Positions 18 through 16,573 are shown, numbered from the stretch's first letter. The stretch: 32,000 nucleotides of DNA from Nitrosopumilus ureiphilus (GCF_013407185.1 NZ_CP026995.1:591578-623577); one strand, 5' to 3'. A program made the numbers and translations. Notes: generated from the letters alone by a model not told the origin.

Positions 18-203
18 TTGAAATCAGGCATGTCTGTAAAAATAAAATGTGATTTGTGTGAGGGTCAAATTGGAGATAAACCTCATGTTTTAAAATTTGC
101 AACTTTTGAGAGATTTTTTTGTTGTAATACCTGCAAAACACAGTATAAAGAAAAAAACAAAGGGCGAATTCAGTCAATCATAGACAAAGCAGAAGATAAA
201 TGA
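18..203 (+). CDS. small Cys-rich TRASH/zinc-ribbon-like metal-binding protein
   Basis: 61-aa ORF with C-x2-C ... FFCC-x2-C pattern (CDLCEG...ERFFCCNTCKTQY). Similar Cys layout to the N-terminus of the CopA ORF at 9503. True start may be the internal MSVKIK. Confidence 0.5.
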   Translation: MKSGMSVKIKCDLCEGQIGDKPHVLKFATFERFFCCNTCKTQYKEKNKGRIQSIIDKAEDK

Positions 204-204
204 T

Positions 205-218
205 TTTACAAATGTAAA
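205..218. promoter_or_regulatory. palindromic operator-like site TTTACAAATGTAAA (perfect)
   Basis: Perfect inverted half-sites. After a 9-nt gap comes TTATTTAT (228-235). The htrA ATG is 35 nt from the motif edge. Confidence 0.75.
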
Positions 219-252
219 ATACTATTGTTATTTATCTCATAATTTACAATCT

Positions 253-1398
253 ATGTGTATTAGATTGTTTTATTCAAATAGATCAAAGGTTTTGCTTGGA
301 GGAGTAGTTTTTAGTGTTGTTTTGCTATCGTTGGCTTCGCTGGTCATACTGCCCCCTGTATTAGCACAAGACAACTCTTACTCCTCTGAGAATCTACAAA
401 CAAGAAATGACTTTCAATCATCAGAAAAAATTTATTCATTAACTGAACTTTTTGATCGTTCTGAATTTGGAGTAGTAAGTATTACTGTTACAAAAGCATC
501 AGAGATTGGTGATTCTAACAGTGTTGGTTCAGGATTTGTATTTGACAAAAAAGGTCACATAATCACAAATAACCATGTTGTTGAAAACTCAAAGAAAATT
601 TCTGTCACGTTTATAGATGGAACTTCATATCGTGCACAAATTGTTGGCACTGATCCCTATGCGGATATCGCAGTAATCAAATTAGATGTGAGTCCTGAAA
701 AACTTTATCCTTTACCTATAGGAGATTCCTCAAGTCTTAGGGTGGGAGAAAAAATAGCTGCAATTGGAAATCCATTTGGGTTATCAGGTTCTATGACTTC
801 GGGTATTGTGAGTCAACTAGAAAGATTACTTCCAACAGGTGTTGGGTTTTCAATTCCAGATGTAATTCAAACAGACACTGCCATTAATCCTGGAAACTCA
901 GGAGGTCCTCTACTTAACATGAAAGGGGAGGTAGTAGGCATAAACACTGCGATTTATTCTAATGATGGTAGTTTCTCAGGTGTTGGGTTTTCAATTCCGT
1001 CTAACGTTGTTTTAAAAATTGTACCAATACTGATCAAAGAAGGAAGTTATCAACACCCATGGGTTGGAATATCTAGTGTAAATATTACTCCTGATATTGC
1101 AGAATTATTGAAACTTGAAGATGCAAAAGGTGTCTTGATCATGACAGTAGTAAAAGATAGTCCGGCTGACAAGGCAGGACTAGTAGGATCCTCTCAAACA
1201 GCAGTTGCAGATGATATTGAATATACAGTAGGGGGAGACATCATTTTATCAGTCGATGGAAACGAGGTAAGAAAAATTGATGACATTTTAACTCATCTGC
1301 AGCGCAATAAAATTGTGGGAGATGAATTAAATCTGGAAATACTACGTGATGGAAAAATAATTAATATCATTTTGACTCTTGAAGAAAGACCACAATAA
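253..1398 (+). CDS. htrA: HtrA/DegP-family serine protease with C-terminal PDZ domain, secreted
   Basis: N-terminal hydrophobic signal. Catalytic His (TNNHVV), Asp (DIAVIK) and Ser (GNSGGPL) motifs. PDZ-like C-terminal region. Confidence 0.93.
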   Translation: MCIRLFYSNRSKVLLGGVVFSVVLLSLASLVILPPVLAQDNSYSSENLQTRNDFQSSEKIYSLTELFDRSEFGVVSITVTKASEIGDSNSVGSGFVFDKKGHIITNNHVVENSKKISVTFIDGTSYRAQIVGTDPYADIAVIKLDVSPEKLYPLPIGDSSSLRVGEKIAAIGNPFGLSGSMTSGIVSQLERLLPTGVGFSIPDVIQTDTAINPGNSGGPLLNMKGEVVGINTAIYSNDGSFSGVGFSIPSNVVLKIVPILIKEGSYQHPWVGISSVNITPDIAELLKLEDAKGVLIMTVVKDSPADKAGLVGSSQTAVADDIEYTVGGDIILSVDGNEVRKIDDILTHLQRNKIVGDELNLEILRDGKIINIILTLEERPQ

Positions 1399-1402
1399 TA
1401 AA

Positions 1403-1949
1403 ATGACAATATTCAAGTATTCGGTTTTATTTTTTCTTGTTTTTAATTTTAATTTTTAATCCAGCTAGTGCTGAAACTGTCAAAATTCCTGAATGAGTTT
1501 TTACAGTACATGGTTTTTGGACTGATGAGAAAATTCCTGATGAAGAATTGCCACTATGCTAACTTATCTGGAGAAAAATGATGTTGTGGATCTTATTTTG
1601 CATAAAACCTATTGTGTTAAAACAAATTTTTTACTGTCTAACGCAAAATCAAAACACTGAATAATATTCATCTTGTAGTGACGGCTGGTATGTTGCAGGA
1701 TATTTTGTGCCTGTAGAGAAAGATTGTGCCGGGAAATTTATTGGAATCAACATTGATGAAGAACCACGAGAATTTAGACAAGATTTTACCGATGCCATAA
1801 AGATAAAGGACTGGGGCAAAATACTATCTGGCAATTATCTGGGTTGGTATGACTCCATTAAAGGAAAATATATTGATCTATTTGCTGGAGAAGGAAAACT
1901 AGATGAAACATTTTGTGTTACAAGTTATGACAATAAAGTTTGCCAATAG
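1403..1949 (+). pseudogene. decayed secreted-protein gene (signal peptide plus interrupted body)
   Basis: ATG at 1403 encodes a signal-like peptide (MTIFKYSVLFFLVF) that stops at 1457-1459 in a T-run. The next frame continues NPASAETVKIPE, then has TGA (1494-1496) where W would be expected (IPEW), then in-frame stops at 1560 and about 1663. Only the last ~94 codons (to 1949) stay open. Confidence 0.45.
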
Positions 1950-1950
1950 T

Positions 1951-2292
1951 CTATGATAATTTTTCCAATAATTCTTGTTTTTTTGGAATTCCAGTAAATT
2001 CTAATTTATCATCAATAACAACTCCTGGTGCTGTGAAGATGGGATATTTTTCCAAGTATTCTGGTTTTTCTGTGACATCAATTATGTCATAGAGCATGTT
2101 CATCTCATCTAACATTTGTTCTACAACTTTGCAATTTCCACAAGATGGTGTTGTCAAAATTTCAATCTTATGATTCATTTTCAAATTGTCCTGGATTGCT
2201 CTCAAATGCCCATCTGCAACTAGCACAGCAAAAATGGTATTCTTTTCCTTTGTAGGATAATTTTTCTCCCTTGTCACCAACTTCCATTCCAC
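1951..2292 (-). CDS. small thioredoxin/glutaredoxin-fold protein (CGNC active site)
   Basis: MNHKIEILTTPSCGNCKVV... has the typical small thioredoxin-fold layout. Lies 12 nt downstream of ccdA on the same strand. Start may be the internal Met at 2178. Confidence 0.75.
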   Translation of the reverse strand: MEWKLVTREKNYPTKEKNTIFAVLVADGHLRAIQDNLKMNHKIEILTTPSCGNCKVVEQMLDEMNMLYDIIDVTEKPEYLEKYPIFTAPGVVIDDKLEFTGIPKKQELLEKLS

Positions 2293-2304
2293 ATACTGGA
2301 TCTT

Positions 2305-3297
2305 TCATCTATTTGCCTCCCTTAGTCTACGAACCGAAAGTACAAAAATTGGACTTGCTATTAGTATTGCTAACAAAACTGTGAAAAAATTCTTAAAAAT
2401 CTGTACATCATTATGGCCATGTTCGTGCTCATCCATCTCAAATTCCGCTGGAATTGGAGTAATTTCAATCAAAGTATTCCACCCTTGATGGATGAATGTT
2501 TCCTCGTACCATTCATGACCCTCCGGAAGTCCATTAATGATCAAAAATGCACCTATAACTATCAGCATCCAACCAGATGCTCTCTCAATTGATTCTCGTT
2601 TAACTGTAAGACTTTTTGTTGCGTTAATTCCAATCACTGCAAGTACTGACATCAAAATCAATGGAATTGCTCTTCCAACCCCATGAACTACTCCTAATGA
2701 AGCACCTACTTCGATACTACCAGTACCAGCAATGTAAATGAGAAGCCAGTAAAATAAAGGATTAGGACATCCAACTCCTGCATTCCCTAACAGCAAACCC
2801 ATGAAAAATGATTTTGTGTATTCACCTCGCTTTTGTATAAATTTAGGAGTGCCTGAATATGATGGTAGTCTTAGAGATATAATTTTTAATTGTGATAATC
2901 CAAAAATAAAAGCAGCAATTCCTGCAATCAAAAACATGATGGTGGATGCTTGATCTAATGATGCGCTTTGCCCGATAGCTGCTATTGCTATACCATAAGA
3001 CGCAATAGTTATGGTTAATCCCAAACCAAAAAGTAAAGCCATGGACAATCCTTTCTTGTAACCTTTACCCATACTCAATGGAACAATAATGAAAACAAGT
3101 GGTAACGTACATGGTAAAACTATCATGGACAATCCCGCTACATATGCAATTACAATCCACGAAAGATATGTTGTGTGTTCTTTTCCGTCAATTGTAAAAT
3201 TTGTTCCAAACGAAAATACAATTCCAAGAAAAATTAATGAAAATAAAGCAAATGAAATAATCACCATGGATTTTTTTGCTAGTACAATTGTTGACAT
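2305..3297 (-). CDS. ccdA: CcdA/DsbD-family transmembrane thiol-disulfide electron transporter with His-rich tail
   Basis: Multi-TM protein with the two family Cys motifs (LPCTLPLV and GVGCPNPLF). C-terminal EMDEHEHGHND segment followed by one more TM. Confidence 0.85.
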   Translation of the reverse strand: MSTIVLAKKSMVIISFALFSLIFLGIVFSFGTNFTIDGKEHTTYLSWIVIAYVAGLSMIVLPCTLPLVFIIVPLSMGKGYKKGLSMALLFGLGLTITIASYGIAIAAIGQSASLDQASTIMFLIAGIAAFIFGLSQLKIISLRLPSYSGTPKFIQKRGEYTKSFFMGLLLGNAGVGCPNPLFYWLLIYIAGTGSIEVGASLGVVHGVGRAIPLILMSVLAVIGINATKSLTVKRESIERASGWMLIVIGAFLIINGLPEGHEWYEETFIHQGWNTLIEITPIPAEFEMDEHEHGHNDVQIFKNFFTVLLAILIASPIFVLSVRRLREANR

Positions 3298-3334
3298 GTT
3301 ATCATAATCCTATTTCTATACTTAACAAGTAGAC

Positions 3335-3348
3335 TTTACAAATGTAAA
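3335..3348. promoter_or_regulatory. palindromic operator-like site TTTACAAATGTAAA (perfect)
   Basis: Perfect site. On the gene (minus) side there is a 9-nt gap, then TTAAGTAT (3325-3318). The ccdA start codon is 38 nt from the motif edge. Confidence 0.75.
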
Positions 3349-3386
3349 ATAATAGTTTCTGAAATAATAGGCCCACATTAATGTCG

Positions 3387-4052
3387 TCATAGCATGGATT
3401 CAATTATTTTTTCAAATACTGAATATGGCTGTGGTCCAACAACTGTCTCTTGGAAGCCATCTGGACCTACAATGAAAAACGTAGGGGTGCCAGTAACTCC
3501 ATTATTTTGTGCCTCAGATGTGTTAAATTGTACACGTTTTTGGTATTTTGCAGAATCTAGGCAACTCACAAACATATCCATGTTTAATCCTAGATTGTAT
3601 GCATATCCCTTTAGGCTGTCTGAATTTGCCCAACCATTATCAATTGATAACTGATTTGAATACAAGAATCCGTGATAGTCCCAATATTTTCCTTGCTCTT
3701 CTGCGCAATAACTTGCAATTGATGCAGGTATGGAATCTTTTCCTAGGAATGCAATATCTACAAAAATTAGTTTAGCTTTTCCGGTCTCTATGTAATTGGT
3801 TACAATATCAGGTTTTGTATTTAGAAACCATTTTTTACAGTTTGGACATTGATAGTCTCCAAACTCAATTATTGTGATTGGTGCATTTGAAGACCCCCTG
3901 ATTGGAGAACCCAGTGAGGTGTCAATAGTACCGATTTTTCTATTCATATCAAGATTAATGTCTTCAGAATTTGTAGGAATTTGATAAAATAAAACAAGTA
4001 TCACCAATACAAGACCTATGCTAGATGCATAGATGATATGTTTAGGTTTCAA
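3387..4052 (-). CDS. DsbA-like thiol:disulfide oxidoreductase, membrane-anchored or secreted
   Basis: N-terminal TM followed by a thioredoxin-fold CxxC (FGDYQCPNCKKW). TTG start preceded by GGAGAGGG. Confidence 0.87.
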   Translation of the reverse strand: MKPKHIIYASSIGLVLVILVLFYQIPTNSEDINLDMNRKIGTIDTSLGSPIRGSSNAPITIIEFGDYQCPNCKKWFLNTKPDIVTNYIETGKAKLIFVDIAFLGKDSIPASIASYCAEEQGKYWDYHGFLYSNQLSIDNGWANSDSLKGYAYNLGLNMDMFVSCLDSAKYQKRVQFNTSEAQNNGVTGTPTFFIVGPDGFQETVVGPQPYSVFEKIIESML

Positions 4053-4114
4053 TTTATTTTACCCTCTCCAACATTCATAATATTTTAAAAACCAGCTATA
4101 CTTAATCACAGTAC

Positions 4115-4128
4115 TTTACAAATGAAAA
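4115..4128. promoter_or_regulatory. operator-like site TTTACAAATGAAAA (1 mismatch)
   Basis: One half-site mismatch. 9-nt gap, then TTAAGTAT (4105-4098) on the minus side. 63 nt from the DsbA-like start. The flank is about 80% identical to the flank of site 3335. Confidence 0.6.
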
Positions 4129-4134
4129 TGGGAT

Positions 4135-4596
4135 TTAGAATCTACTTAGCTCAACAATGATTTTTCCTTTCATCCATGGGTGAGGTTCACAGTGATAAGG
4201 TACCTCTTGAGGCTCAGTAAACAGAAACTCGTAGGAATCCCCCGGTTTTATGACGCCAATAGAACCAAAATCTCCACTGTAACTATCCGTTGTTCTGTGA
4301 TCAGGAGTTACCGTATGCGCAGCATCATCATTGTTTTGCCAAATTACTTTATTATTAATCCCCAACAGTACATTGGATGTGTTTGGAACATAGTTTTCAT
4401 TTCCTTCAATTACCGCACCGGGAACAATTTCAATTGTAAATTCTTCTTCAGGATTTAAGATATATTCAGCTACAGAGGGTTTTGCTAAAGATTCAGGAAG
4501 ATAAAATGATGTGTAAAAAACTACAGATGCAGACATGCCAATGATTACTGCAATAACTCCTATGCCATATGCATGACTCGATGATGGAGAGCTCAA
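4135..4596 (-). CDS. plastocyanin/cupredoxin-like blue copper protein, N-terminally anchored
   Basis: Type-1 Cu ligand pattern H...C-x2-H-x2-M (AAHTVTPD ... YHCEPHPWMKGKIIV). N-terminal TM. Confidence 0.88.
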   Translation of the reverse strand: MSSPSSSHAYGIGVIAVIIGMSASVVFYTSFYLPESLAKPSVAEYILNPEEEFTIEIVPGAVIEGNENYVPNTSNVLLGINNKVIWQNNDDAAHTVTPDHRTTDSYSGDFGSIGVIKPGDSYEFLFTEPQEVPYHCEPHPWMKGKIIVELSRF

Positions 4597-4635
4597 TTAC
4601 TGAATTTGTTGAAGTTGTGTATTTAATGATGATAC

Positions 4636-4649
4636 TTTACAATTGCAAA
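4636..4649. promoter_or_regulatory. operator-like site TTTACAATTGCAAA (1 mismatch)
   Basis: 9-nt gap, then TTAAATAC (4626-4619) on the minus side. The cupredoxin ATG is 40 nt from the motif edge. Confidence 0.65.
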
Positions 4650-4659
4650 TATTACAAAA

Positions 4660-5462: not shown

Positions 5463-5476
5463 TTTACAACTGTAAA
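5463..5476. promoter_or_regulatory. palindromic operator-like site TTTACAACTGTAAA (perfect half-sites)
   Basis: 9-nt gap, then TTAAGTAT (5486-5493) on the plus side. No tracked ORF follows before the next site at 5727. Confidence 0.6.
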
Positions 5477-5726
5477 CTATATCCATTAAGTATCTTTTAG
5501 ATTCATGTCATACATGCTTAATGACTCTGTTCGTTTCACATGTTATTGAGCAGAAATATTTTATGGGGATTTTTTATGAAATCTTAATCCTAATGGGATT
5601 TCCCCCTTCAAAATTCAGAATTTGATAATTCTTCTAACTATTTTTGAAAAACGATGTGATTAAAAATGAAATATCGTTATTTCTGATTTTATATTATAGT
5701 GTAGATTATGTGTATTAATTTAGAAT

Positions 5727-5740
5727 TTTACATTTGTAAA
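5727..5740. promoter_or_regulatory. palindromic operator-like site TTTACATTTGTAAA (perfect)
   Basis: 9-nt gap, then TTTAATAA (5750-5757). The ATG of the Met-rich protein is 43 nt from the motif edge. Extended symmetry ...TGTAAAGTAC. Confidence 0.75.
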
Positions 5741-5782
5741 GTACTTGTTTTTAATAACTAAAAATAGATAGTAAATATAGAA

Positions 5783-6496
5783 ATGGTGAACCAATCTGCA
5801 TGGATAGGAATTGCTATTGGGGTCTTTTTTGTGGGGCTTGTCATTGGATTTGGGATTTTTACAGGTACCATGAATATTGGAAATATGCCAATCCAAAACC
5901 AACAAGCAATGATGCAAGATCCACAATTTCAACAACAAATGATGAATCAATTACTAAATGATCCTGAAACCAGAAATCAAATGATGGACACTATGACACA
6001 AGATCCATCTGCCATGAGATCATGGATGGAAAATACTCAACATGTAGAGGAAATGGCCACTATAATGAGAGAGAATCATGATTTTGCTATGAGGATGATG
6101 TATACAATGATTGAAGACTCTGCTTTACGATTGCAGATGATAGGTCATATGACAGAAAATCCTGAGGCGATGCAACAAATGATGAATATGATGAATTCAG
6201 GTATGGCAAATCAGAGTATGATGGATTCTGGAATGATGATGGGCAATATGTCAGGAGGAATGATGAATTCAGGTATGATGAATCAAGACATGATGATGCA
6301 AATAATGCAAGATCCTGAAACAAGAGAAAAAATGATTCAGATAATGTCTAAACATGTATCTGAAATGCAAGAATTACTTTCTTCAGAATTACCTGATGGT
6401 GAGTTTAACACACAGATGACAGAATTGATGCAGAATCACATGAAAGAAATGCAAGTTCTAATGCCAAATCAACCAATGCATCAATCCATGAAGTAG
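5783..6496 (+). CDS. membrane-anchored, extremely Met/Gln-rich protein (candidate Cu(I)-binding)
   Basis: N-terminal TM. By hand count about 50 Met in 237 aa, in runs such as MMDSGMMMGNMSGGMMNSGMMNQDMMMQIMQ. Repeated DPETR-x-(Q/K)M motif. The exact 18-nt repeat atgatgaattcaggtatg occurs at 6188 and 6260. Confidence 0.75.
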   Translation: MVNQSAWIGIAIGVFFVGLVIGFGIFTGTMNIGNMPIQNQQAMMQDPQFQQQMMNQLLNDPETRNQMMDTMTQDPSAMRSWMENTQHVEEMATIMRENHDFAMRMMYTMIEDSALRLQMIGHMTENPEAMQQMMNMMNSGMANQSMMDSGMMMGNMSGGMMNSGMMNQDMMMQIMQDPETREKMIQIMSKHVSEMQELLSSELPDGEFNTQMTELMQNHMKEMQVLMPNQPMHQSMK

Positions 6497-6509: not shown

Positions 6510-7193
6510 ATGAAGAATAGTAGAAAAACAATTTTAATTGTAATTCCTATTGGAATCTTGATTGCAATGTTTCTATCCTCATTCTTATTTCAACATTTTA
6601 TTTCAGTTCAATCTGGAAACGAACTTGATAAAGTTTCAACAAACACATCTTTTGATACGTTGTCTTCTTTTAATTCGCCCGTAATTGGTTTCTCTGATGC
6701 ACCTGTAACAATTATCGTTTTTAATGACTATCAATGCTTATCCTGTAAAACATGGTATGAAAATTCCTATGAAGATATTTCAAAAAAATTAATTGAAACG
6801 AAAAAAGCAAAAATAATATTTTTAGATTCAGAACCTGTAGGAAATGATTCTATTTTGATATCACAAGCAACATTTTGTGCGGATGAACAGGGAAAATATT
6901 CAGAATATCAAGAAGTATTGTTTTCCTCACAACAAAAAATTGATGGATGGGCAAAATCGGTTCAATTGAAGAATTTTGCAATGGATTTGAATCTGAATGT
7001 GGCGTCATTTGAGAGATGTTTAGACTCTGGAAAATATGAAAAAGATGTAATAACAAATATAGATTATGCAAAAAGTATCGGAGTAGAAAAAATTCCAATT
7101 TTCAAAATTGTTAATTTTGAAGGAAAAGAACACGTTCTCAAAGGAGGCATTTCAAGTACAGTTTTTGAAAATATTGTGGAACAATTTCAATAA
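6510..7193 (+). CDS. DsbA-like thiol:disulfide oxidoreductase
   Basis: N-terminal TM and CxxC (FNDYQCLSCKTW). Starts 13 nt after the Met-rich ORF, so probably the same operon. Confidence 0.85.
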   Translation: MKNSRKTILIVIPIGILIAMFLSSFLFQHFISVQSGNELDKVSTNTSFDTLSSFNSPVIGFSDAPVTIIVFNDYQCLSCKTWYENSYEDISKKLIETKKAKIIFLDSEPVGNDSILISQATFCADEQGKYSEYQEVLFSSQQKIDGWAKSVQLKNFAMDLNLNVASFERCLDSGKYEKDVITNIDYAKSIGVEKIPIFKIVNFEGKEHVLKGGISSTVFENIVEQFQ

Positions 7194-7213: not shown

Positions 7214-7435
7214 CTACTGCCAAACACAGTTTCTTTTTTCATGTATTTCTTTTCTGGCTCTATTACCTCTAGGCGTAATTCGTAATTTTACACTACAGCA
7301 AGGACATCGAATGCCCTGATATGTGAGGAATATCTCGCATACTGGGCACAATTTTTGCCCGTTTTCATACCTGTGTCGTCCTTCATATCCTGTCGCTCTG
7401 TACTTTGTACAGACTCCTTTACATGTAGTTACCAT
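7214..7435 (-). CDS. small CPCC zinc-ribbon protein with basic tail (paralog family, copy 1)
   Basis: CKGVC...C-x2-C...CPCC followed by LRITPRGNRARK. Paralogous to 16617-16775 and 28738-28938. Confidence 0.7.
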   Translation of the reverse strand: MVTTCKGVCTKYRATGYEGRHRYENGQKLCPVCEIFLTYQGIRCPCCSVKLRITPRGNRARKEIHEKRNCVWQ

Positions 7436-7479: not shown

Positions 7480-7493
7480 ATTACATCTGTAAA
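7480..7493. promoter_or_regulatory. operator-like site ATTACATCTGTAAA (1 mismatch), bidirectional
   Basis: TATA-like boxes at a 9-nt gap on both sides (TTAAATAT on minus, 7470-7463; ATTAATAC on plus, 7503-7510). Start codons lie 45 nt (7435, minus) and 40 nt (7533, plus) away. Confidence 0.65.
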
Positions 7494-7902: not shown

Positions 7903-9282
7903 TTATGACCTTTTTGTAATCCATTCGGTAACTCTCGGCCATAATTCTTCATGTGCTTTTTTACTAATGCATAAGCCTACATGTCCTGTTGGATATTCTA
8001 TTAGTTCTTTATCTGTACTAGGAATGTGACACATAACATATTTGCTAGAATCTGATGGGACCAAATCATCATTTTGTCCAACTATGTTTAAAACAGGCAT
8101 AGTTAGTTTGTTAAGATCAACAAATTTTCCACCCACTTTCATCTTGTTATGGATTAGTTGATTTTTTTGGTAGATTTTTTTGATAATCTCTTTGTATACT
8201 TTGCCTGTAATCGGTCTACTATCATACAACCACATTTCAATTGCCATAAACTGTTGAATCTCATCTAAAGAACGTGGTTTTTTGAAATAGTTTGGATATT
8301 TTAGAACTGATTCCAAGGGATTTCTCATTATAAATGCAAAATTCAAAAGTTGTCCTGGAACATTTCCTAATTTTTCTATCATAATATCTAGATTGATTTG
8401 TTTTGTCCATTTTTCAATTACTGTGTCTGGCTTTTCCAAATCAAGCGGTGTTGCATGTAAGACGAGATTTTTTACCGTTTCTGGATGCATTGTAGTATAA
8501 ATAAGTGAAAGAATTCCTCCCCAACAATACCCAAACAACGTTATTTTCTTAAAACCTGTAATTTCTTGAATTTTTTTAACAGAGTTTTCTACATATTCAT
8601 GAATGTATTTTTCAAGAGTCATATCTTTATCAAAAGTAGTGGGTGTTTCCCAATCTGTTGCATATACGTCAAATCCTTTATTGATAAAATGTTGCACAAC
8701 ACTGATTTTAGGTAGCAAATCAAGGATGTAATGCCTGTTTATCAATGAATAAACAATAAGAATTGGGGTCTTGTTTGACTTTTTAGATTTGTAGTGAAGT
8801 AAATGATACTGTCCATTCATCTCTATTGATTCAGAGTCTGTTCTGTTTAGATTGTCCCGTATGGGTTCAAGTATTTTGTTAAGGAGAAAAAATTGTTCAG
8901 TATATTTTTGATACAACTCACCAATTCCAAAAAACTTTGACAATGTAAACCAAGAGTCAATGGTTTTTGAAAAGGAATTCACAAAATCATCTTTTTTTAT
9001 TCCTTTCCGGAACTCTTGATCAAAAGTCTTCCTCATTTTTGATTGTGAATTGTTGGATAAAAAATTACTTAATGTAATGTTATTTTCATACAAAGTTTTT
9101 GAAACTGAATCCGATAAAATGATATTGTATTTAATAAATAATTGGTTTTGATTCAGGACATAATCTATGTATGAAGATGAAAATTCACGTAATGTATCAT
9201 AATTATAATTATTCATTTTATGTTTATTTTTTTGCCATATCCAATGCAATCTTGAACGCATGGTTGGAGTACTTGGAACCAT
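7903..9282 (-). CDS. alpha/beta-hydrolase, class III PHA synthase (PhaC)-like
   Basis: G-x-C-x-G lipase-type box (FGYCWGG) and C-terminal His (PTGHVG). The start is probably an internal Met (MNNYNYD, about 9216). Confidence 0.65.
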   Translation of the reverse strand: MVPSTPTMRSRLHWIWQKNKHKMNNYNYDTLREFSSSYIDYVLNQNQLFIKYNIILSDSVSKTLYENNITLSNFLSNNSQSKMRKTFDQEFRKGIKKDDFVNSFSKTIDSWFTLSKFFGIGELYQKYTEQFFLLNKILEPIRDNLNRTDSESIEMNGQYHLLHYKSKKSNKTPILIVYSLINRHYILDLLPKISVVQHFINKGFDVYATDWETPTTFDKDMTLEKYIHEYVENSVKKIQEITGFKKITLFGYCWGGILSLIYTTMHPETVKNLVLHATPLDLEKPDTVIEKWTKQINLDIMIEKLGNVPGQLLNFAFIMRNPLESVLKYPNYFKKPRSLDEIQQFMAIEMWLYDSRPITGKVYKEIIKKIYQKNQLIHNKMKVGGKFVDLNKLTMPVLNIVGQNDDLVPSDSSKYVMCHIPSTDKELIEYPTGHVGLCISKKAHEELWPRVTEWITKRS

Positions 9283-9377: not shown

Positions 9378-9391
9378 TTTACAATTGTAAA
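9378..9391. promoter_or_regulatory. palindromic operator-like site TTTACAATTGTAAA (perfect)
   Basis: Lies in the divergent region between the PhaC-like gene and copA, 112 nt from the copA ATG. Confidence 0.6.
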
Positions 9392-9455: not shown

Positions 9456-9472
9456 TTTGTCTTTAAGACAAA
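9456..9472. promoter_or_regulatory. distinct 17-bp palindrome TTTGTCTT-T-AAGACAAA upstream of copA
   Basis: Perfect 8+8 inverted repeat ending 31 nt before the copA ATG. GGAG lies 10-13 nt before the ATG. Confidence 0.55.
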
Positions 9473-9502: not shown

Positions 9503-11668
9503 ATGGCAAAAGATCCTGTTTGCGGCATGATTGTAAATGAAAAAACAGGAATATCTTCTGAATTTGGTGGTAGAAAATTCTACTTTTGTAGTCCTGTTTG
9601 CCAGAAAACATTCACAGAACCTGAAAAAGAGCTTTCACGAATGAAGAAGCGAATCTATGTGGCTACTTCAGGAGCTTTGGCCCTTGCAATAATTCGTGGA
9701 GCTCTGTATCTTGGTGTTGCAGCTGGTGCAATCACAGTTACATGGGTTCCTTTTCCAGAAATACCGTTTCTCTCATATGGCTTGCTTCTTTTCATAATTG
9801 TGACTCCAGTACAATTCATTGGAGGGTGGACGTTCTATGTTGGAGGGTACCATGCAATTATTAGAAGAACTGCAAACATGGACTTGCTAATTTCAATTGG
9901 AACACTCACTGCATATATCTACAGTACCATAGTTCTTTTCTTTCCTGATGCAATTCCAGGCGAAGAAAAGTTCGTCTATTTTGAGGTATCTGCTGTAATT
10001 ATTGCCTTTGTTCTTTTGGGAAAATACATGGAAGAGGCAATAAAAAAGAAAAGTTCATCTGCTGTAAGAAAATTACTTGACTTGAGTCCACCAATGGCAT
10101 GTGTGATTCGTGAGGGCTCAGAAATGGAAATTCCTTCTAATCAGATCAAGATGGATGATGTGATGATCGTAAAACCTGGTGAAAAAATTCCAACTGATGG
10201 AATTATCATTACAGGTGAATCCTCTATAGATGAAAAAATGATTACAGGTGAAAGCCTCCCTGTTGGAAAAAAGCCGGGTGATCAAGTTATTGGGGCTACT
10301 GTTAACAAACAAGGATTGCTTCATATCAAAGCAACCAAAATAGGAAAAGATACTGCATTATCTCAAATTGTTCATGTAGTAGAGCAAGCACAGTCTTCTA
10401 CTGCTAAAGTACAAAGGATGGCTGATTCTATTGCTGCGAAATTTGTTCCTTCTGTGGTAGGAGCAGCCGTCATAACATTTCTACTTTGGTATTTTGTTAT
10501 AGGTGATTTTGTTGCAGGCTTGCTTGCATTTGTTGCAGTTATGATTATTGCATGCCCTTGCGCACTTGGGGTAGCTACGCCTGCTGCATTAATGGTTGGA
10601 GTTGGAAAGGGTGCCGAATCAGGAATTCTAATCAGAGGCGCAGAATACTTGGAACGCTCACAAAAAATCAACACAATCGTATTTGACAAAACAGGCACCA
10701 TAACAAAAGGAGAGCCAGAGGTTACAGACATAGTGTCTTTGAATGAACTAAGTGAAAAACAAATTATTGAATATGGTGGAACAGTAGAATCGGGTTCTGA
10801 ACATCCTATCGCTAAAGCTGTTGTGAATAAAATGAAAGAAATGAATATTCCTCTTACTACTCCTGAAGAATTTGAATCATTAAACGGATTGGGGGTGAAA
10901 GCTATGGTTCATGGGAAAAAAATCTATACTGGAAACAGGAAAATGATGAAACAGTTTGGCATTGATGTTCGTCTTGCTGAACAAAACATGGAAAGACTAG
11001 AGTCAGAAGGAAAGACAGCAATAATGGTGATAATTGATGATAAAATAGAGGGCATCATTGCAGTTGCAGATTCATTAAAGGAAACCTCTCAAATGGCAAT
11101 TTTTGCACTTACTGATCTTGGGATAGAGTCAATTATGATTACAGGTGACAATGAAAAAACAGCACAAGCAATAGCAAAAAAAGTTGGTATTGAGAAAATC
11201 ATTGCAAATGTTTTACCCGCAGATAAAGCCAAAGAGATCAAGAAACTACAAGCACAAGGAAAATTTGTTGCAATGGTGGGTGATGGAATTAATGATGCCC
11301 CCGCTTTAGCACAAGCTGATATAGGGATTGCAATTGGTAGTGGTTCTGACATTGCAAAGGAAACAGGAGGAATAATTCTGATCAGAGATGATCTAATGGA
11401 TGTTTCTCGTGCAATTCGATTGAGCAGAGCAACCATGAAGAAAATCAAACAAAATCTTTTCTGGGCATTTGCATACAACTCTGGCGGAATTCCAATTGCA
11501 GCTCTAGGTCTACTTAGTCCAATCTTTGCAGCTGCTGCTATGGCTCTAAGTTCAATTTCAGTCATTGCAAATTCTTCTATGCTTAAGCGATACAATATTA
11601 CAAGTGGAGAAGAAAAATTAATGAAATCTGAGATGTTTCAAAAACAAAAACTTGAGGCTATGAGATAA
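9503..11668 (+). CDS. copA: copper-translocating P1B-type ATPase with N-terminal TRASH/YHS-type domain
   Basis: TGES, CPC (IACPCALG), DKTGT and GDGINDAP motifs. N-terminus DPVCGMIV...[12 protein letters not shown] replaces a GMxCxxC HMA domain. Confidence 0.96.
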
Positions 11669-11672
11669 TCAT

Positions 11673-13214
11673 ATGGATCTTATAATTAAGAATCTAGGTA
11701 TTGAATCTGGTGGAAAACCAATTGTATTTCTTAATGTTTTGGATGCTGATGAACTAGGTGTATCTGCATCGGGAAGGCTGCAGATTAATTCTGGAAGATC
11801 GTTAACAGTGATAGTTAACATTGCGTCAGTTACTGTACAAAAAGGATATTTGGGAATTAGCGAGGAAGTGCAAAAAATTTTAAAGTTAGAACAAGATTCA
11901 GTTGTTGATGTACAAATTTCACCATTTCCAAAATCTTTACAATTCATACGTAACAAACTAAATGGGAAAAAACTCACCGATAAAGAAATTCATGAAATCG
12001 TAAATGGGGTTGTTAATGGGAACCTCAATGAAAATGAAATTGCCGCTTTTGTAACTTCATTACATATTCAAGGATTGAGTCTTGATGAGGCCACTAGTCT
12101 TTCTTCATCAATGGTGATGACTGGAAAGCAACTTGTTCTTAATTCTCCTCAAATTGTAGACAAACATAGTATCGGTGGTGTTCCTGGAGATAAAACGACT
12201 TTGCTTGTAGTTCCCATCATTGCAGCTTCTGGACTGATTATACCAAAAACATCCTCTAGGGCAATCACATCTGCTGCTGGAACAGCTGATAGGGCAGAGA
12301 CATTGATGCCAGTGGATTTAGGAATTGAAGAAATGAAAGAAGTGGTTCATAAAACAAATGGTTGTATTGTGTGGGGTGGCGCTCTAGATTTAGCACCTGC
12401 TGATGATATTTTTGTAAAAACAGAATATTCATTGTGTATTGATCCTTTACTATTACCTTCGATTATGAGTAAAAAGAAAGCAGTTGGCGCAACTCATTTG
12501 GTAGTTGACATTCCAACAGGGCGAGGCGCCAAAGTAAAAACAATTGGAGAGGCAGATCTACTTGCAAAAGACATTATTGAGTTAGGAAAACGACTTGGAA
12601 TATACTGTCATTGCGTATTGACTTATGGGGAGCAACCAATTGGAAATACCATAGGTCCATCTCTTGAAGCACGAGAAGCACTTGAGGTATTGATGAAGAC
12701 ATCTCAAGTTCCGGATTTGTTTGACAAAGCATGTCATGTTGCAGGTTCAATTTTTGAAATAACTGGAAAAAAGAATGGATTTGAATTAGCAAGAGATATT
12801 CTTCTTTCAGGAAAAGCAGAAAAAAAACTCAGAGAAATAATATCTCAACAAGGGGGTCAATCAGAAATTAAACCATTTGATTTTGTTATCGGTACTAATA
12901 CATTTGAATACCGTTCTGTCAATGAAGGACAAGTTTTATGGATGGATAACAACATTATGGTCGAAATAGCAAGAGCTGCAGGTGCTCCAAAAAACAAAGG
13001 CTCTGGAATTATATTTAATAAGAAAAATGGAGACAAAGTTTCCAAAAATGATGTTCTTTTTACTGTTTACGCTGAAAAATCCCCGAAACTCTCAAGAGCA
13101 GAACAAATTCTTGATGAAAAAATGCCTATGGGAATAGGGGACAAAATGGAAATGTTGATCCATAGAGTAAAAGAATCCCCAGTTGTAAGAAGATCTTTTA
13201 TTTTGGATAGATAA
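11673..13214 (+). CDS. AMP phosphorylase / thymidine phosphorylase family protein
   Basis: 513 aa with an N-terminal extra domain and the DKHSIGGVPGDKTT signature of the pyrimidine-nucleoside phosphorylase family. Confidence 0.82.
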   Translation: MDLIIKNLGIESGGKPIVFLNVLDADELGVSASGRLQINSGRSLTVIVNIASVTVQKGYLGISEEVQKILKLEQDSVVDVQISPFPKSLQFIRNKLNGKKLTDKEIHEIVNGVVNGNLNENEIAAFVTSLHIQGLSLDEATSLSSSMVMTGKQLVLNSPQIVDKHSIGGVPGDKTTLLVVPIIAASGLIIPKTSSRAITSAAGTADRAETLMPVDLGIEEMKEVVHKTNGCIVWGGALDLAPADDIFVKTEYSLCIDPLLLPSIMSKKKAVGATHLVVDIPTGRGAKVKTIGEADLLAKDIIELGKRLGIYCHCVLTYGEQPIGNTIGPSLEAREALEVLMKTSQVPDLFDKACHVAGSIFEITGKKNGFELARDILLSGKAEKKLREIISQQGGQSEIKPFDFVIGTNTFEYRSVNEGQVLWMDNNIMVEIARAAGAPKNKGSGIIFNKKNGDKVSKNDVLFTVYAEKSPKLSRAEQILDEKMPMGIGDKMEMLIHRVKESPVVRRSFILDR

Positions 13215-14099
13215 TTACCATTCTTGAATTGCCTTGGAAATAATACCTGACAAATCAACAAGTGAATGTTTTCCAGAAATAGCATTCGTACTGACAATTT
13301 TGTATACCCCTGCATTTCTTAGATTTTTTTCAGCATTACCTGCCAACACTGCATGAGTGCATGCAACATAAATTCTTCCAATGTTTTTCTTTTTAAAAAA
13401 TTTTATTGCCTTTACAATGCTGTCTCCCGTGCTTACCATGTCATCTAACAAAACCACGTCTTGAAAATCCACATTAATCAATTTAGATGATTTAATGACT
13501 AATTCTCCTGTCTTTCTATTCCTTTGTTTGTTTAATGCAATTGAGTTGCAATTCAGAATTTTTGCAAACTCCTTTGCTTTGTTTTCCCAAAAAAGATCAG
13601 GAGATACAACTAGTGGATGATGAAGGTTTATCTTTTTAAAATAATTTGCAAGTAATGGTACTGCAGACAGATTTTTTGATTGAATTTTGAAAAAATTCAG
13701 CTCTTCACCACTATGAATATCCACTACAATTAGTTTAGTTGCCCCTGCAGCCTTGAACAGTTTTGCAATGACAGATATTGTGATGATTTCTCCTTTCAAA
13801 AATTCCTTGTCTTGCTTTGCATATCCAACATATGGAATTACTGCATATACCACTGTTGACATTTTTCTTGCCTGATAGATTAATGAAAAGGCATGTACAA
13901 GATTCGTATCTACAGGAATGTGTGTTGATTGAACTACTATAATTTTTTGAGCTTTTATCATTCCTTTTACTGTGATTTTACTTTCACCATCAGGAAATTT
14001 CTTTAATTCCGTCTTCAAGAATTTTGAATTCAGTTTCCTTGAAATTTTTTGAGCTAAACCTTCTGATGATGGTCCTCCAATAACAAGATATTTTTCCAA
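13215..14099 (-). CDS. prs: ribose-phosphate pyrophosphokinase (PRPP synthetase)
   Basis: PRPP-binding loop VLLDDMVSTGDS and overall Prs-like layout. Confidence 0.88.
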   Translation of the reverse strand: MEKYLVIGGPSSEGLAQKISRKLNSKFLKTELKKFPDGESKITVKGMIKAQKIIVVQSTHIPVDTNLVHAFSLIYQARKMSTVVYAVIPYVGYAKQDKEFLKGEIITISVIAKLFKAAGATKLIVVDIHSGEELNFFKIQSKNLSAVPLLANYFKKINLHHPLVVSPDLFWENKAKEFAKILNCNSIALNKQRNRKTGELVIKSSKLINVDFQDVVLLDDMVSTGDSIVKAIKFFKKKNIGRIYVACTHAVLAGNAEKNLRNAGVYKIVSTNAISGKHSLVDLSGIISKAIQEW

Positions 14100-14169
14100 T
14101 ACATGTAATGCCTAATCATATGTCTTAAATTTAATGAAATAAAATGAACTGGGATCATTGAAATTCTTC

Positions 14170-14183
14170 TTTACAATTGTAAA
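14170..14183. promoter_or_regulatory. palindromic operator-like site TTTACAATTGTAAA (perfect)
   Basis: Perfect site 71 nt from the prs start. No clear TATA-like box at the 9-nt gap on the prs side. Confidence 0.5.
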
Positions 14184-14287
14184 ATAGTGTAATTATCTAC
14201 AATAAAATCTGTCAGTAAATCAAATTGAAGATAAAATCTAACACAAAAATTTCTTTGCTGATAATTTTTGGTACAATAATTACATAC

Positions 14288-14301
14288 TTTATAATTGTAA
14301 A
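14288..14301. promoter_or_regulatory. TTTATAATTGTAAA (1 mismatch): operator-like site or simply the TATA box
   Basis: Only 29 nt from the ATG at 14330. The TTTATAAT part is itself a good TATA box at a suitable distance for a leaderless mRNA. Confidence 0.4.
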
Positions 14302-14329
14302 TACGATGTCATAATGAATAACATCTGAT

Positions 14330-15067
14330 ATGATTGAAGAAACTCTTGAACACATTGGAATTCTTTCACCTTTATTGATAATGGGGTTGGGACTTGCAGT
14401 TGGAATACAACATGCATTTGAGCCAGATCATGTTACAGCGGTAAGTACTCAGATCTTAAAATCAAAATTTATGGCAAAATCTACAAAACAACTAATCAGA
14501 GAATCCATAACAAAATCATCAATTTTAGGTGTACTTTGGGGATCTGGGCATACTACAACCCTTGTTTTAATTGGATTTTTGGTATATGCATTTGCATTAA
14601 CAATACAGGACAAAATCTTTTCAGGATTTGAATTCATAGTTGGGATAATGCTTGTATTTTTAGGGGTAACAACAATTCTTAATAAAAAAATCCAATTAAA
14701 ACACAAACATCCACATCAGCATAAAGATGGAACCATTCATCTTGAAAAACATACTCATGATGACTCTGAACATAGACACACTCACAAATCATATCTAATT
14801 GGTCTGATACATGGATTGGCGGGAAGTGGAAGTTTGGTAGTTTTGACTGCTTTTTCCATGAATGATATTGGTATGATTTTGGGATTTATTGCAGTCTTTG
14901 GGGTTGGCTCTATGGCTGGAATGGTATTTGTAGGAAGCTTGATTGGCATTCCATTTGCATTTGGAACTAGATTTACATCAATCCAAAAAATATTTCGTTA
15001 TGTGACAGGAACACTAAGTCTTATTATTGGATTTAACATAATGTATCAAATTGGGTGGTTATTTTAA
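14330..15067 (+). CDS. NicO/RcnA-like metal (Ni/Co-type) transporter with His-rich loop
   Basis: H-x4-DH signature (HAFEPDH), multi-TM, and central loop HKHPHQHKDGTIHLEKHTHDDSEHRHTH. Confidence 0.7.
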   Translation: MIEETLEHIGILSPLLIMGLGLAVGIQHAFEPDHVTAVSTQILKSKFMAKSTKQLIRESITKSSILGVLWGSGHTTTLVLIGFLVYAFALTIQDKIFSGFEFIVGIMLVFLGVTTILNKKIQLKHKHPHQHKDGTIHLEKHTHDDSEHRHTHKSYLIGLIHGLAGSGSLVVLTAFSMNDIGMILGFIAVFGVGSMAGMVFVGSLIGIPFAFGTRFTSIQKIFRYVTGTLSLIIGFNIMYQIGWLF

Positions 15068-15300
15068 ATTTCTTTACAGAAAAAGTCCAAAAATATCATG
15101 CAAAAAAACTAAATGAGGCATTACAAAAACTAAAGTTTCATCAAGAGCTAAAGAAACGTCTAGAAAATGAGATAAAAATAATTGGTGATGAATCAAAAAT
15201 AAATTTGGAAAAAGAAATAGGTAAACAAAATGAGATAATTGCCATTTGGAAAAAAAATATTGAAAAAATAAATGAACAACTAGCTAAATTAAAAAAATAA
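15055..15300 (+). CDS. small Lys/Glu-rich coiled-coil protein
   Basis: 81-aa ORF overlapping the preceding gene by 13 nt. Low-complexity sequence, so coding status is uncertain. Confidence 0.3.
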   Translation: MVILNFFTEKVQKYHAKKLNEALQKLKFHQELKKRLENEIKIIGDESKINLEKEIGKQNEIIAIWKKNIEKINEQLAKLKK

Positions 15301-15440
15301 AAAAACTTGGAGAGGGAAACGACTATTCTATTTCATTATCGCCTCCTTGCAAAGACTGTTGAATTTTTTGCACGTAGTTATACAGATTAGATTTTTCCGC
15401 ATTATTTGATTTAGGAGTAATACATACTTAGATTGAGAAC

Positions 15441-15454
15441 TTTACATTTGTTAA
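15441..15454. promoter_or_regulatory. operator-like site TTTACATTTGTTAA (1 mismatch)
   Basis: In tandem with the site at 15484; starts are 43 bp apart. Confidence 0.55.
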
Positions 15455-15483
15455 AATTGGTTTATGATAATTAAATCATCGAC

Positions 15484-15497
15484 TTTACATTTGTAAA
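15484..15497. promoter_or_regulatory. palindromic operator-like site TTTACATTTGTAAA (perfect)
   Basis: 9-nt gap, then TTATTTAT (15507-15514). The cupredoxin ATG is 42 nt from the motif edge. Confidence 0.75.
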
Positions 15498-15538
15498 ATT
15501 CTATAATTATTTATCGCGGCACAGAGTAGTTAATTTCT

Positions 15539-16573
15539 ATGCTTGCAACAAAGTTTAGAAAATTTTCAATGTATTTTGTATTTTCTAGTTATATCGTTAT
15601 CTTATTTGCTATAGGTAACGTACTGGATGCTGATGCTGAAGAATTTACTATTGGCATTCCCTTTGGTGCTTTTAATCCCGAATTAAACACTCCTGCAGTG
15701 GTTTGGTATAATCCACCAATACTATCAATTCAGACCGGGGATACCGTAACTTGGATTAATGATGATCGAGAGGGACATACTGTAACTAGTGGTGAGGGTT
15801 CAGGAAGATTTGAATGGATGGATGCCAAAGATCTTGGTAAGCCTGATGGATTATTTGATAGTGAAAGATTCATGCCAAATGAGTCTTGGTCATATACTTT
15901 TGAAAAAGAAGGTATCTTCAATTATTTTTGTGTAATTCACCCATGGATGAGCGGAACTGTAATTGTAAAACAAATAATACCTGATTTTCCTCATGATGCG
16001 GCAGGAAATAAAATAGAAACATTTCCAATAATACAATATACTCCTGATAAATTAATAGAGTTTGATATTACATGGGAGCCAAATGTTATCAAAACATTTG
16101 AAAAAACTAAATTCATTTATCAGACATATGATGCCATGACAAACTCAAATCTAGACAAGATGCAATATGACCTAATCATAACTCAAAATGGAAAAAAAGT
16201 ATTCCAAGATTCTGGGGTAACCCAAGTTGGTGGGGATTATAGAAATGTCATCTTTGAGACATCAGGTCCGATAGAAATCATGTTTCAAAATATCGTGAGC
16301 AGTGGCTCTTCTGGCATATCTAGTGCTGCAAGGGCACCTGTTGATCAACCAATATTTCGTACAGTTGTATTTACCACAATAGTATATGACAATTCAGAAA
16401 AAACTACTTCGTCTGAAACTGTTGTGCAGCCTGCACAGAGACTAGATATCTATTACGAACTTTTAGTTGCCATAATACTAGTTCCTGCATTAATGCTGCT
16501 TGGAATAGTTTTATACATGAAATTTAAAAAACATGAAATTTCTTCACAGGAAACACATTCAACACCAATCTGA
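15539..16573 (+). CDS. cupredoxin-domain protein with extra C-terminal domain and TM anchor
   Basis: EGHTVTSG ... YFCVIHPWMSGTVIV (H, C, H, M ligands). Signal or TM at the N-terminus and a C-terminal TM. Confidence 0.85.
   Translation: MLATKFRKFSMYFVFSSYIVILFAIGNVLDADAEEFTIGIPFGAFNPELNTPAVVWYNPPILSIQTGDTVTWINDDREGHTVTSGEGSGRFEWMDAKDLGKPDGLFDSERFMPNESWSYTFEKEGIFNYFCVIHPWMSGTVIVKQIIPDFPHDAAGNKIETFPIIQYTPDKLIEFDITWEPNVIKTFEKTKFIYQTYDAMTNSNLDKMQYDLIITQNGKKVFQDSGVTQVGGDYRNVIFETSGPIEIMFQNIVSSGSSGISSAARAPVDQPIFRTVVFTTIVYDNSEKTTSSETVVQPAQRLDIYYELLVAIILVPALMLLGIVLYMKFKKHEISSQETHSTPI

Follow-up and report, generated by a model that had tools for sequence, protein, structure and literature searches.

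What holds together the genes for exported thiol-redox, copper-binding and protein-quality-control proteins that crowd a 32,000-nucleotide stretch of DNA from Nitrosopumilus ureiphilus (NZ_CP026995.1:591578-623577; hereafter the window, AT-rich at ~32% GC)? A preliminary description of this DNA had noticed the gene families and a palindrome before nearly all of them, and had read the set as an expanded archaeal analogue of the bacterial ScsABCD copper-tolerance system under one promoter type. A thaumarchaeal CopR-type regulon, strongly expanded in this genome, appears to be the better description: with a probability of roughly two in three, the window is a dense island of one such copper regulon, with a protein composed of helix-turn-helix (HTH) and TRASH domains as the predicted binder of the palindrome.

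The palindrome itself is real. Counted with at most one mismatch, the perfect 14-bp palindrome TTTACAnnTGTAAA occurs at 20 sites in the window, against 0.46 expected, and none of 100 shuffled windows reached that number. Allowing two mismatches adds just two further sites, below the chance expectation, and the sites are therefore sharply distributed, being near-perfect or absent. All 20 fall in intergenic DNA, which makes up 23% of the window. Within 27 kb, about 15 genes or operons have them in common; the genes are distributed over at least 15 promoters, and their exported products serve thiol redox, copper binding and the quality control of proteins. The geometry is rigid as well. A TATA-like element (TTAAGTAT) accompanies 63 sites, counted over the window and the related loci together, and in 55 of these the gap between palindrome and TATA box is exactly 9 nt, which puts the palindrome just upstream of the TFB recognition element (BRE), and the start codon follows some 20-25 nt beyond the TATA box. 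At several promoters a second site lies 42-44 bp further upstream, equal to four helical turns (15441/15484 and 21160/21202 in the window, 3686/3730 in locus L058 and 2996/3040 in locus L060), a spacing that hints at cooperative binding to a single face of the helix.

Comparison with 80 loci that surround ccdA homologues in Nitrosopumilaceae, together 995 kb, tied the palindrome to particular genes. Its density is 0.63 sites per kb in the window versus 0.13 per kb in these loci, and many related loci of 21 kb have zero sites. Across the 80 loci, the genes found downstream of sites were ccdA (45), the gene for a regulator of ~145 aa (32), and those for a Met-rich protein (12), DsbA-like proteins (11), a 73-aa Cys-rich protein (9), HtrA (7), cupredoxins (6) and an MsrQ-like protein (4); other site-bearing genes in relatives encode multicopper oxidases, Kelch and YncE-type beta-propellers, a SurA-like chaperone, a BNR/sortilin-like protein and a DUF326 (Csp-like) protein. 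Palindrome and TATA box keep a fixed position, amid divergent flanks, in about 45 of the 71 promoters of ccdA. In a second set of loci, for which the regulator protein was the sole criterion of choice and which belong to an abundant marine lineage (L202-L207 among them), there are exactly three sites per ~14 kb: one precedes the regulator gene itself, one ccdA-yhs-trx and one the 73-aa gene. The genes for ATP synthase, pyrBI, a Lon-like gene, nikR, znuABC and copCD have none. In L203 (7415-13092) and L205 (6378-12055), operator-free genes for NikR, ZnuABC and a 928-aa CopC/CopD fusion adjoin the regulon core. Housekeeping promoters lack the palindrome, also where the genome encodes the regulator. 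It is a transcription-factor operator and not a promoter class, and the earlier wording of one promoter type has to be given up; that the genes form one regulatory unit is borne out, by an operator that they have in common and that is conserved in orthologous promoters.

Outside these sets, a metagenome scan with TTTACAWWTGTAAAGT returned mostly unrelated organisms, thaumarchaeal or copA-linked loci amounting to about 15 of 120. In soil lineages, the palindrome lies between divergent copA and HTH-TRASH genes (L118, with 36% GC, and L178, with 51% GC), and it precedes copA in L130 and L174, of the 36% GC group like L118, and in L180; copA has the operator in canonical geometry in L118, L130 and L174. 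In palindrome-free lineages (L022, L024, L070 and L021) the ccdA promoter keeps just the TATA box ATTAAATAT, and what appears, from the upstream sequence, to be the 3′ end of a tRNA stands immediately before ccdA. This points to a separate, presumably unregulated promoter history of ccdA in these lineages.

The candidate regulator is encoded at the left edge of the window. The 'free TRASH-like protein' previously placed at 18-200 turned out to be the last 66 codons, with the stop codon, of an HTH-TRASH regulator gene cut by the window edge (3-203, + strand); in translation it agrees with the C-terminal part of complete orthologues. The portion for the N-terminal HTH half falls beyond the left edge, as does the promoter of the gene, which ends directly upstream of htrA. 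Full-length orthologues of ~145 aa match HTH_AsnC-type (5.5e-13), HTH_24 (1.8e-12) and Arc_trans_TRASH (4.6e-8). The cysteines of the window sequence CDLCEGQIGDKPHVLKFATFERFFCCNTC are spaced C-x2-C-x20-C-x3-C, which fits the TRASH pattern C-x2-C-x19-22-C-x3-C that Ettema and colleagues are said to have given in 2003, and the TRASH domain holds five cysteines altogether. In an AlphaFold2 model, an HTH module and a TRASH module are joined by a disordered linker (residues 54-92). Lrp/AsnC matches in PDB cover residues 4-59, the HTH alone, with LrpC and PH0140 among the Foldseek matches, and no RAM/oligomerisation domain was found, either as an AsnC_trans_reg match or as a beta-alpha-beta-beta-alpha-beta domain in the model. 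The family comprises more than 1,800 clusters in public data, named just 'AsnC family regulator' or 'LysM', and a literature search found no paper linking Nitrosopumilus to a TRASH regulator. Among the ccdA loci with enough flank, the regulator and the ccdA palindrome occur together in 14, the regulator alone in 2, neither in 17 and the palindrome alone in 1, a co-occurrence that is confounded by phylogeny and gene adjacency. The regulator is predicted to bind promoter DNA containing TTTACAATTGTAAA. At 27976-28705 in the window, the genes for a winged-HTH protein of 97 aa and for a SHOCT-domain membrane protein overlap by 8 nt, and in L156 (247-972) the same pair adjoins the HTH-TRASH gene.

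Operator and regulator both recall the characterised copper regulators of other archaea. Pyrococcus furiosus CopR (PF0739, Lrp-type HTH plus TRASH) occupies the semi-palindrome TTNNCAWWWTGNNAA directly upstream of the BRE, is bound with or without copper and activates on copper, and the 14 most induced genes lie within 28 kb (PMC7830388). An HTH-plus-TRASH make-up is common to this protein, Saccharolobus solfataricus CopR, Thermococcus onnurineus TON_0836 and the thaumarchaeal candidate, and so are half-sites of the type TT..CA/TG..AA and a palindrome directly upstream of BRE/TATA, which for our system were determined in silico. The divergent pairing of regulator and copA, the classical archaeal cop arrangement, recurs in L118 and L178; in the window, copA lies 9 kb from the regulator. 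The clustering of targets in ~28 kb is another likeness to P. furiosus, as is the presence among the targets of genes of arCOG group O (post-translational modification, protein turnover, chaperones). The two systems differ in that the spacer is 3 nt there and 2 nt here and that the palindrome here is perfect and much sharper; the thaumarchaeal protein, of ~145 aa and with a disordered linker, has neither a RAM/oligomerisation domain nor a His tail. Furthermore, exported thiol-redox and cupredoxin proteins dominate the regulon here, and a ccdA-yhs-trx operon is not described in the cited parts of the P. furiosus work. The P. furiosus operator was mapped experimentally; the thaumarchaeal regulon is a prediction from sequence. 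The tie to copper proposed in the preliminary description is upheld by the TRASH domain of the regulator, the operator at copA in other Thaumarchaeota and the copper-type YHS domain in the ccdA operon.

A further likeness reaches outside the archaea. Over its 14 bp the palindrome is identical to the cop box of Firmicutes CopY/CopR (TACAnnTGTA; GTTTACAnnTGTAAAC in Lactococcus lactis; PMC7253601), and a tie to copper-transport genes, experimental in Firmicutes, is proposed here. However, the Firmicutes binder is a winged-helix repressor of the BlaI/MecI family, whereas the candidate here is an Lrp/AsnC-HTH-TRASH protein with sites upstream of an archaeal TATA box, and the identity is most likely convergent, because no CopY/BlaI-type protein is encoded in the window.

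The most widely conserved target is the ccdA-yhs-trx operon, preceded by an operator (3335-3348), the 9-nt gap and the TATA box TTAAGTATA. CcdA (2305-3297, - strand; Pfam DsbD_TM 3.8e-10, 39.9 bits against a cutoff of 27.1) carries two Cys-Pro motifs, LPCTLP and GCPNP, and is a CcdA/DsbD_TM family member. The DsbD_TM/DsbD_2 match is confined to residues 48-250, with an extra transmembrane (TM) helix at the N-terminus and another at the C-terminus, and the loop between TM6 and the last helix has a His-rich sequence, GH..WYE..H..WN..PEF..HxH, that is invariant in the 80 loci. By the positive-inside rule, this loop would face outward. The next gene, which had gone unlisted, encodes a YHS/TRASH mini-protein of 46 aa (2168-2308, -; Pfam YHS 6.5e-17). 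Its start codon shares nucleotides with the stop of ccdA (ATGA), and at the 3′ end it runs into the ATG of trx; yhs lies directly 3′ of ccdA in 72 of the 80 loci and is separately called elsewhere as a 46-aa PF04945 gene. Since yhs stands between ccdA and trx, the thioredoxin is 75 aa long (1951-2178, -; CGNC, MJ0307 type; Pfam Thioredoxin_3 9.6e-14, NCBIfam redox_disulf_1), in agreement with an independent 75-aa gene call. It has no signal peptide and is therefore cytoplasmic, and its predicted role is that of the electron donor for CcdA rather than that of an exported partner. The DsbD_TM core, the two Cys-Pro motifs and the adjacent thioredoxin gene recall the CcdA/ResA and DsbD/DsbC pathways, while the 46-aa YHS gene translationally coupled between ccdA and trx, the extra TM helices, the conserved, presumably extracytoplasmic His-rich loop and the lack of a cytochrome c maturation context set the operon apart from them.

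Across the 80 relatives the wider gene set is not syntenic: just ccdA-(yhs)-trx is kept, in many cases accompanied by the genes for the regulator, the Met-rich protein and the 73-aa protein. HtrA, DsbA1 and Cup1 are adjacent in the closest relatives only (L002, L006, L007 and L133). The large island is thus a feature of the window's lineage, because the wider gene order is kept in those relatives alone, and it is held together by common regulation, not by gene order.

Profile searches against Pfam confirmed nearly all of the families that had been named, and most of the members carry the palindrome, as had been claimed for nearly all of them; Cup3 has none, and the sites at the CopA, DsbA3 and DUF192 genes are of non-canonical geometry. 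Next to the regulator gene, the operator TTTACAAATGTAAA (205-218), a 9-nt gap and the TATA box TTATTTATC lead to htrA (253-1398, +), for an exported HtrA/DegP-type serine protease with a PDZ domain and an N-terminal hydrophobic segment (Trypsin_2 4.6e-37, PDZ_2 2.4e-11), and the site is kept upstream of HtrA orthologues in seven loci. The three DsbA-like proteins are paralogues, 42-48% identical, each with a CxxC motif, a cis-Pro and a second Cys pair. DsbA1 (3387-4052, -; CPNC, membrane-anchored; Thioredoxin_4 3.5e-27, DSBA 3.1e-14) is served by an operator with one mismatch (4115-4128) and the TATA box TTAAGTATA. DsbA2 (6510-7193, +; CLSC; Thioredoxin_4 4.4e-19) follows the Met-rich gene by 13 nt in an operon served by the operator at 5727-5740. 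DsbA3 (24165-24809, +; CIEC; Thioredoxin_4 7.5e-23) starts 93 nt off, on the other side of a one-mismatch operator (24058-24071, TATA box CTAAATATC) that serves the gene for a two-domain rhodanese (23175-24020, -; Rhodanese 1.2e-31), a protein without signal peptide (cytoplasmic).

All three cupredoxins have the full H...C-x2-H-x2-M ligand set (HTVT/HTFT plus the loop) and are type-1 proteins. Cup1 (4135-4596, -; amicyanin-like CEPHPWM loop; Copper-bind 1.4e-7) has a one-mismatch operator (4636-4649) with the TATA box TTAAATACA. Cup2 (15539-16573, +; CVIHPWM, with an extra domain and a C-terminal anchor; Copper-bind 2.6e-7) is preceded by tandem operators 43 bp apart (15441-15497), the proximal of which, with the TATA box TTATTTATC, serves it; the distal site (15441-15454) has a TATA-like box on its opposite side, antisense to an open reading frame (ORF) at 15055-15300. 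Cup3 (25863-26726, +; CMLHTWM; Cupredoxin_1 1.6e-6) is without an operator, and its membership in the regulon is therefore not supported. The adjacency of DsbA-like and cupredoxin genes, reported as occurring twice, holds strictly once (3387/4135), since at 24-26 kb the gene for a WING-49 protein (24958-25623; NCBIfam 1.8e-23) intervenes between DsbA3 and Cup3; the L007 and L009 orthologues of this gene have an operator, and the window copy does not.

The Met-rich protein (5783-6496, +; 21% Met, membrane-anchored) is by its composition a candidate Cu(I) binder, and its orthologues have an upstream site in 12 loci. Its sole Pfam match, GerD, was set aside: it scored 29.6 bits at a gathering cutoff of 29.5 and covered a low-complexity stretch of 34 residues. 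The 73-aa Cys-rich, zinc-ribbon-like protein with a basic tail (7214-7435, -), served by a one-mismatch operator (7480-7493) with the TATA box TTAAATATC, is a core member of the regulon with the site upstream in nine loci; searches of Pfam, NCBIfam and PDB sequences gave no family for it. It also occurs in L202 (12557-12778) and L015, and one Nitrosarchaeum chromosome has several paralogues.

CopA (9503-11668, +; E1-E2_ATPase 1.1e-57, YHS 3.5e-10) is a P1B-type ATPase with an N-terminal YHS/TRASH domain. A perfect operator of non-canonical geometry (9378-9391), with no TATA box at the 9-nt gap, lies between copA, whose start is 111 nt off, and the gene for a PhaC-like alpha/beta hydrolase (7903-9282), whose start is 95 nt off. 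A different palindrome, TTTGTCTTTAAGACAAA (9456-9472), stands 9 nt upstream of the copA TATA box TTAAAATTA, in the geometry of the main operator; it is present as a single copy in the window, which is not above chance. A 49%-identical homologue of the PhaC-like protein (L178, 6639-7958; 51% GC, soil-type lineage) is likewise encoded near copA and the regulator. On the other side, an AMP-phosphorylase-like gene is probably co-transcribed with copA, as it starts 4 nt past the copA stop (11668-11673); the gene for phosphoribosyl pyrophosphate (PRPP) synthase is convergent with it and abuts it (13214-13215), and with these two, nucleotide-salvage genes lie inside the copper island.

Two operators (14170-14183 and 14288-14301), the proximal one at a distance of 28 nt, precede the gene for a His-rich polytopic membrane protein of 245 aa with an HAFEPDH motif and an H-rich loop (14330-15067, +), which is 100% identical to a Nitrosopumilus ureiphilus protein. 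Its former label, NicO/RcnA-like, is not supported for the window protein, which matched no Pfam or NCBIfam profile even at E<=10 and no PDB sequence; a minority of homologues at 60-80% identity carry a precomputed PF03824 (NicO) or PF13386, so that the family assignment is weak. The two operators within 18366-18516 are at 18366 and 18503, the latter with the TATA box TTTAATATT and 133 nt upstream of a gene for a major facilitator superfamily (MFS)/spermidine-synthase fusion (18650-20329; NCBIfam MFS_SpdSyn 4.8e-74), orthologues of which have the site in L006, L007 and L009. Tandem operators 42 bp apart (21160-21215), with the TATA box TTAAGTATT, serve the gene for an MsrQ/YedZ-like haem-b membrane reductase (20358-21056, -; Ferric_reduct 2.5e-8 and a weak NCBIfam MsrQ match), whose orthologues have the site in four loci. 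A perfect operator (22545-22558) separates the divergent genes for TM146 (22033-22473, -) and a DUF192 protein (22621-23157, +; 9.3e-33). Several canonical promoters are orphans. The operator at 5463-5476, with the TATA box TTAAGTATC on the + strand, could serve a 34-codon ORF (5521-5625) or an untranslated transcript. Of two perfect operators within 26936-27029, the one at 26936 is directed on the - strand to a 36-aa membrane ORF (26780-26890), and the one at 27016, on the + strand with the TATA box TTAAGTATA, has no ORF within 155 nt. Genes with a site but absent from the earlier list are thus those for the PhaC-like hydrolase, the PRPP synthase side, the MFS/spermidine-synthase fusion, the MsrQ-like protein, TM146, the 73-aa Cys-rich protein and the small ORFs. 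A tRNA-Glu(CTC) gene (30277-30351, minus strand) was the sole Rfam/ARAGORN match in the window.

With the members identified, the comparison with Scs can be judged. A membrane conduit of the DsbD family, exported CxxC proteins of the DsbA/Trx fold and a link to copper stress are common to ScsABCD (of Salmonella and others) and to the island, and the analogy has already been raised for the DsbD (ScsB) of ammonia-oxidising archaea (PMC7785015). The Scs-like reading is supported in part: it is fair as a functional analogy, with a CcdA conduit, exported DsbA-like proteins and a tie to copper, but homology to Scs is lacking, and the genes are neither gathered in one operon nor a conserved syntenic unit. 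CcdA is a minimal TM core, with a His-rich loop and an extra TM helix in place of the N-terminal periplasmic thiol-redox domain and the alpha domain of ScsB. Facing ScsC are three membrane-anchored Thioredoxin_4/DSBA proteins whose best NCBIfam matches (Rcas_1661 family, DsbG) fall below cutoff, so that the likeness is one of fold family only. The 75-aa thioredoxin, a cytoplasmic protein of MJ0307 type without a TM helix and the predicted donor, is not an acceptor of the ScsD/TlpA kind, and the window has no ScsA candidate. The genes are moreover distributed over many promoters, under the predicted control of an archaeal TRASH regulator.

How such a regulon could work may be outlined from the P. 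furiosus precedent. A regulator dimer would sit on each palindrome, and the pairs at 42-44 bp would allow cooperative binding, by analogy with P. furiosus CopR. Cu(I) at the TRASH cysteines would switch the regulator so that it aids the loading of TATA-binding protein and transcription factor B (TBP/TFB), resulting in induction. A first group of induced genes would handle copper in the cytoplasm, with the YHS mini-protein as a chaperone, CopA for efflux and the rhodanese for sulfur and Fe-S repair. In a second group, electrons would pass from the thioredoxin through CcdA to the membrane-anchored DsbA-like proteins, and wrong disulfides formed under copper catalysis would be undone in the envelope. 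A third group, the Met-rich protein, the cupredoxins and HtrA, joined in relatives by multicopper oxidases, a SurA-like chaperone and a Csp-like protein, would buffer copper in the envelope and maintain its proteins, damaged ones being removed.

Several points weigh against a copper regulon under the HTH-TRASH protein. The window's own copA has the operator in non-canonical geometry and a different palindrome at its TATA box. Several members, namely the PhaC-like hydrolase, the MFS/spermidine-synthase fusion and the PRPP synthase side, are without an obvious copper link, and the counts of regulator and site carry the confounding noted above. CopR homologues also differ in sign, that of T. onnurineus being a repressor and that of S. 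solfataricus an activator, and the dsbD gene of Nitrososphaera viennensis is induced by copper limitation, via a different motif (PMC7785015). Finally, the octamer-wrapping mechanism of P. furiosus is not simply transferable, because the thaumarchaeal protein is without a RAM domain.

The direction of the response is where the alternative that survives best departs from a response to excess. The regulon might serve biogenesis and acquisition, the main idea of the preliminary description, folding, metallating and quality-controlling the exported cupredoxins, switched on at copper scarcity or at a high demand for cuproproteins, with the CcdA loop and the YHS protein handling or reducing copper for insertion. 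An operator common to cupredoxin and DsbA-like genes would suit this, as would the conserved, predictedly outward His-rich loop of CcdA and the co-translated YHS protein, in organisms heavily reliant on copper proteins; in N. viennensis, dsbD and multicopper oxidases rise at copper limitation, and a copper-binding, ScsB-like role has been suggested for DsbD (PMC7785015). On the other hand, copCD, for copper uptake, is operator-free beside the regulon core, other lineages have copA, for the efflux pump, as a canonical target, the DsbD-family genes of Nitrosopumilus maritimus reportedly do not respond to copper limitation, and for these reasons the copper-excess direction is favoured. Characterised TRASH regulators also respond to copper excess, and several members (HtrA, the SurA-like chaperone, the Met-rich and DUF326 proteins) resemble a stress set, so we regard a biogenesis regulon as unlikely.

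Whether the HTH-TRASH protein owns the palindrome or is itself only a target of another factor is a separate question, for every candidate's binding to the site is alike a prediction. The candidates would be an ArsR/TrmB-like HTH protein (16893-17234), the winged-HTH protein (28412-28705), the 73-aa Cys-rich protein, whose gene is a core member and which has a basic tail, or a CopY/BlaI-type repressor encoded elsewhere, such as the identity with the operators of Lactococcus CopR, of the CopY family, might suggest (PMC7253601); in L178 an ArsR-like HTH gene adjoins copA and the regulator. However, no Penicillinase_R/CopY-type protein is found among the window ORFs, and the genes for the HTH protein of 113 aa and the winged-HTH protein of 97 aa neither carry the site nor co-occur with it across loci. 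The HTH-TRASH gene alone tracks the site and is divergently paired with it at copA in distant lineages, and the half-sites and their position match the operator of an experimentally mapped HTH-TRASH regulator. Ownership by another factor is accordingly improbable in our judgement.

The signal, too, could be other than copper. The five TRASH cysteines might sense thiol/disulfide, oxidative or nitrosative stress, and the regulon would then be a general envelope redox-stress response, for which its many thiol-redox members (CcdA, Trx, the three DsbA-like proteins, the rhodanese and the MsrQ-like protein) would be apt; for ammonia-oxidising archaea, the literature has considered Trx and Dsb families as a way of adapting to stress of the oxidative and nitrosative kind (PMC7554672). 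Against this, TRASH is treated as a metal-sensing module in the regulators discussed in PMC7830388. Several lineages pair the site directly with copA, and copper is also indicated by the YHS, CopA-TRASH, Met-rich, multicopper oxidase, cupredoxin and DUF326 members alike, which makes redox sensing a rather remote prospect. That the palindrome is a generic promoter element, or marks the promoter class of a TFB paralogue, of which Thaumarchaeota carry many, with no common function implied, was rejected as very improbable: its fixed distance to the TATA box would fit, but whole 21-kb loci are free of it, as are housekeeping promoters, including those beside the regulon core, it goes together with one regulator gene, the two-fold symmetry of the 14-mer suits a dimeric HTH and not a BRE, and the 9-nt gap before the TATA box leaves room for the BRE itself.

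A thaumarchaeal CopR-type copper regulon would bear on organisms of wide importance: ammonia-oxidising archaea drive marine nitrification, and they depend heavily on copper for the proteins of ammonia oxidation and electron transport. How their cop genes are regulated has been called an open question (PMC7785015), which a precise operator and a named candidate regulator make experimentally approachable. The operator-bearing genes would furthermore provide a ready list of putatively copper-responsive markers for metatranscriptomes. A direct mechanistic link between the export of reductant and copper is suggested by the conservation of ccdA-yhs-trx and by the His-rich loop that CcdA is predicted to expose outside. 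To our knowledge, no such link with features of this kind has been described before for the DsbD/CcdA family. Tentatively, and at well below even odds, we would go one step further: in marine ammonia oxidisers, a minimal HTH-TRASH copper sensor may have been rewired from a simple copA switch to the master of an extracytoplasmic copper/thiol proteostasis island of at least 27 kb, whose core would be a new machine of CcdA with an outward-facing His-rich metal site, co-translated YHS protein and thioredoxin, coupling the reducing power of the cytoplasm to copper chemistry at the cell surface. The output of this machine could be the reduction of Cu(II), the hand-off of copper to cupredoxins or the protection of exported thiols. 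If this is true, thiol export, and not a set of classical periplasmic chaperones, would be the organising principle of copper handling in these archaea.

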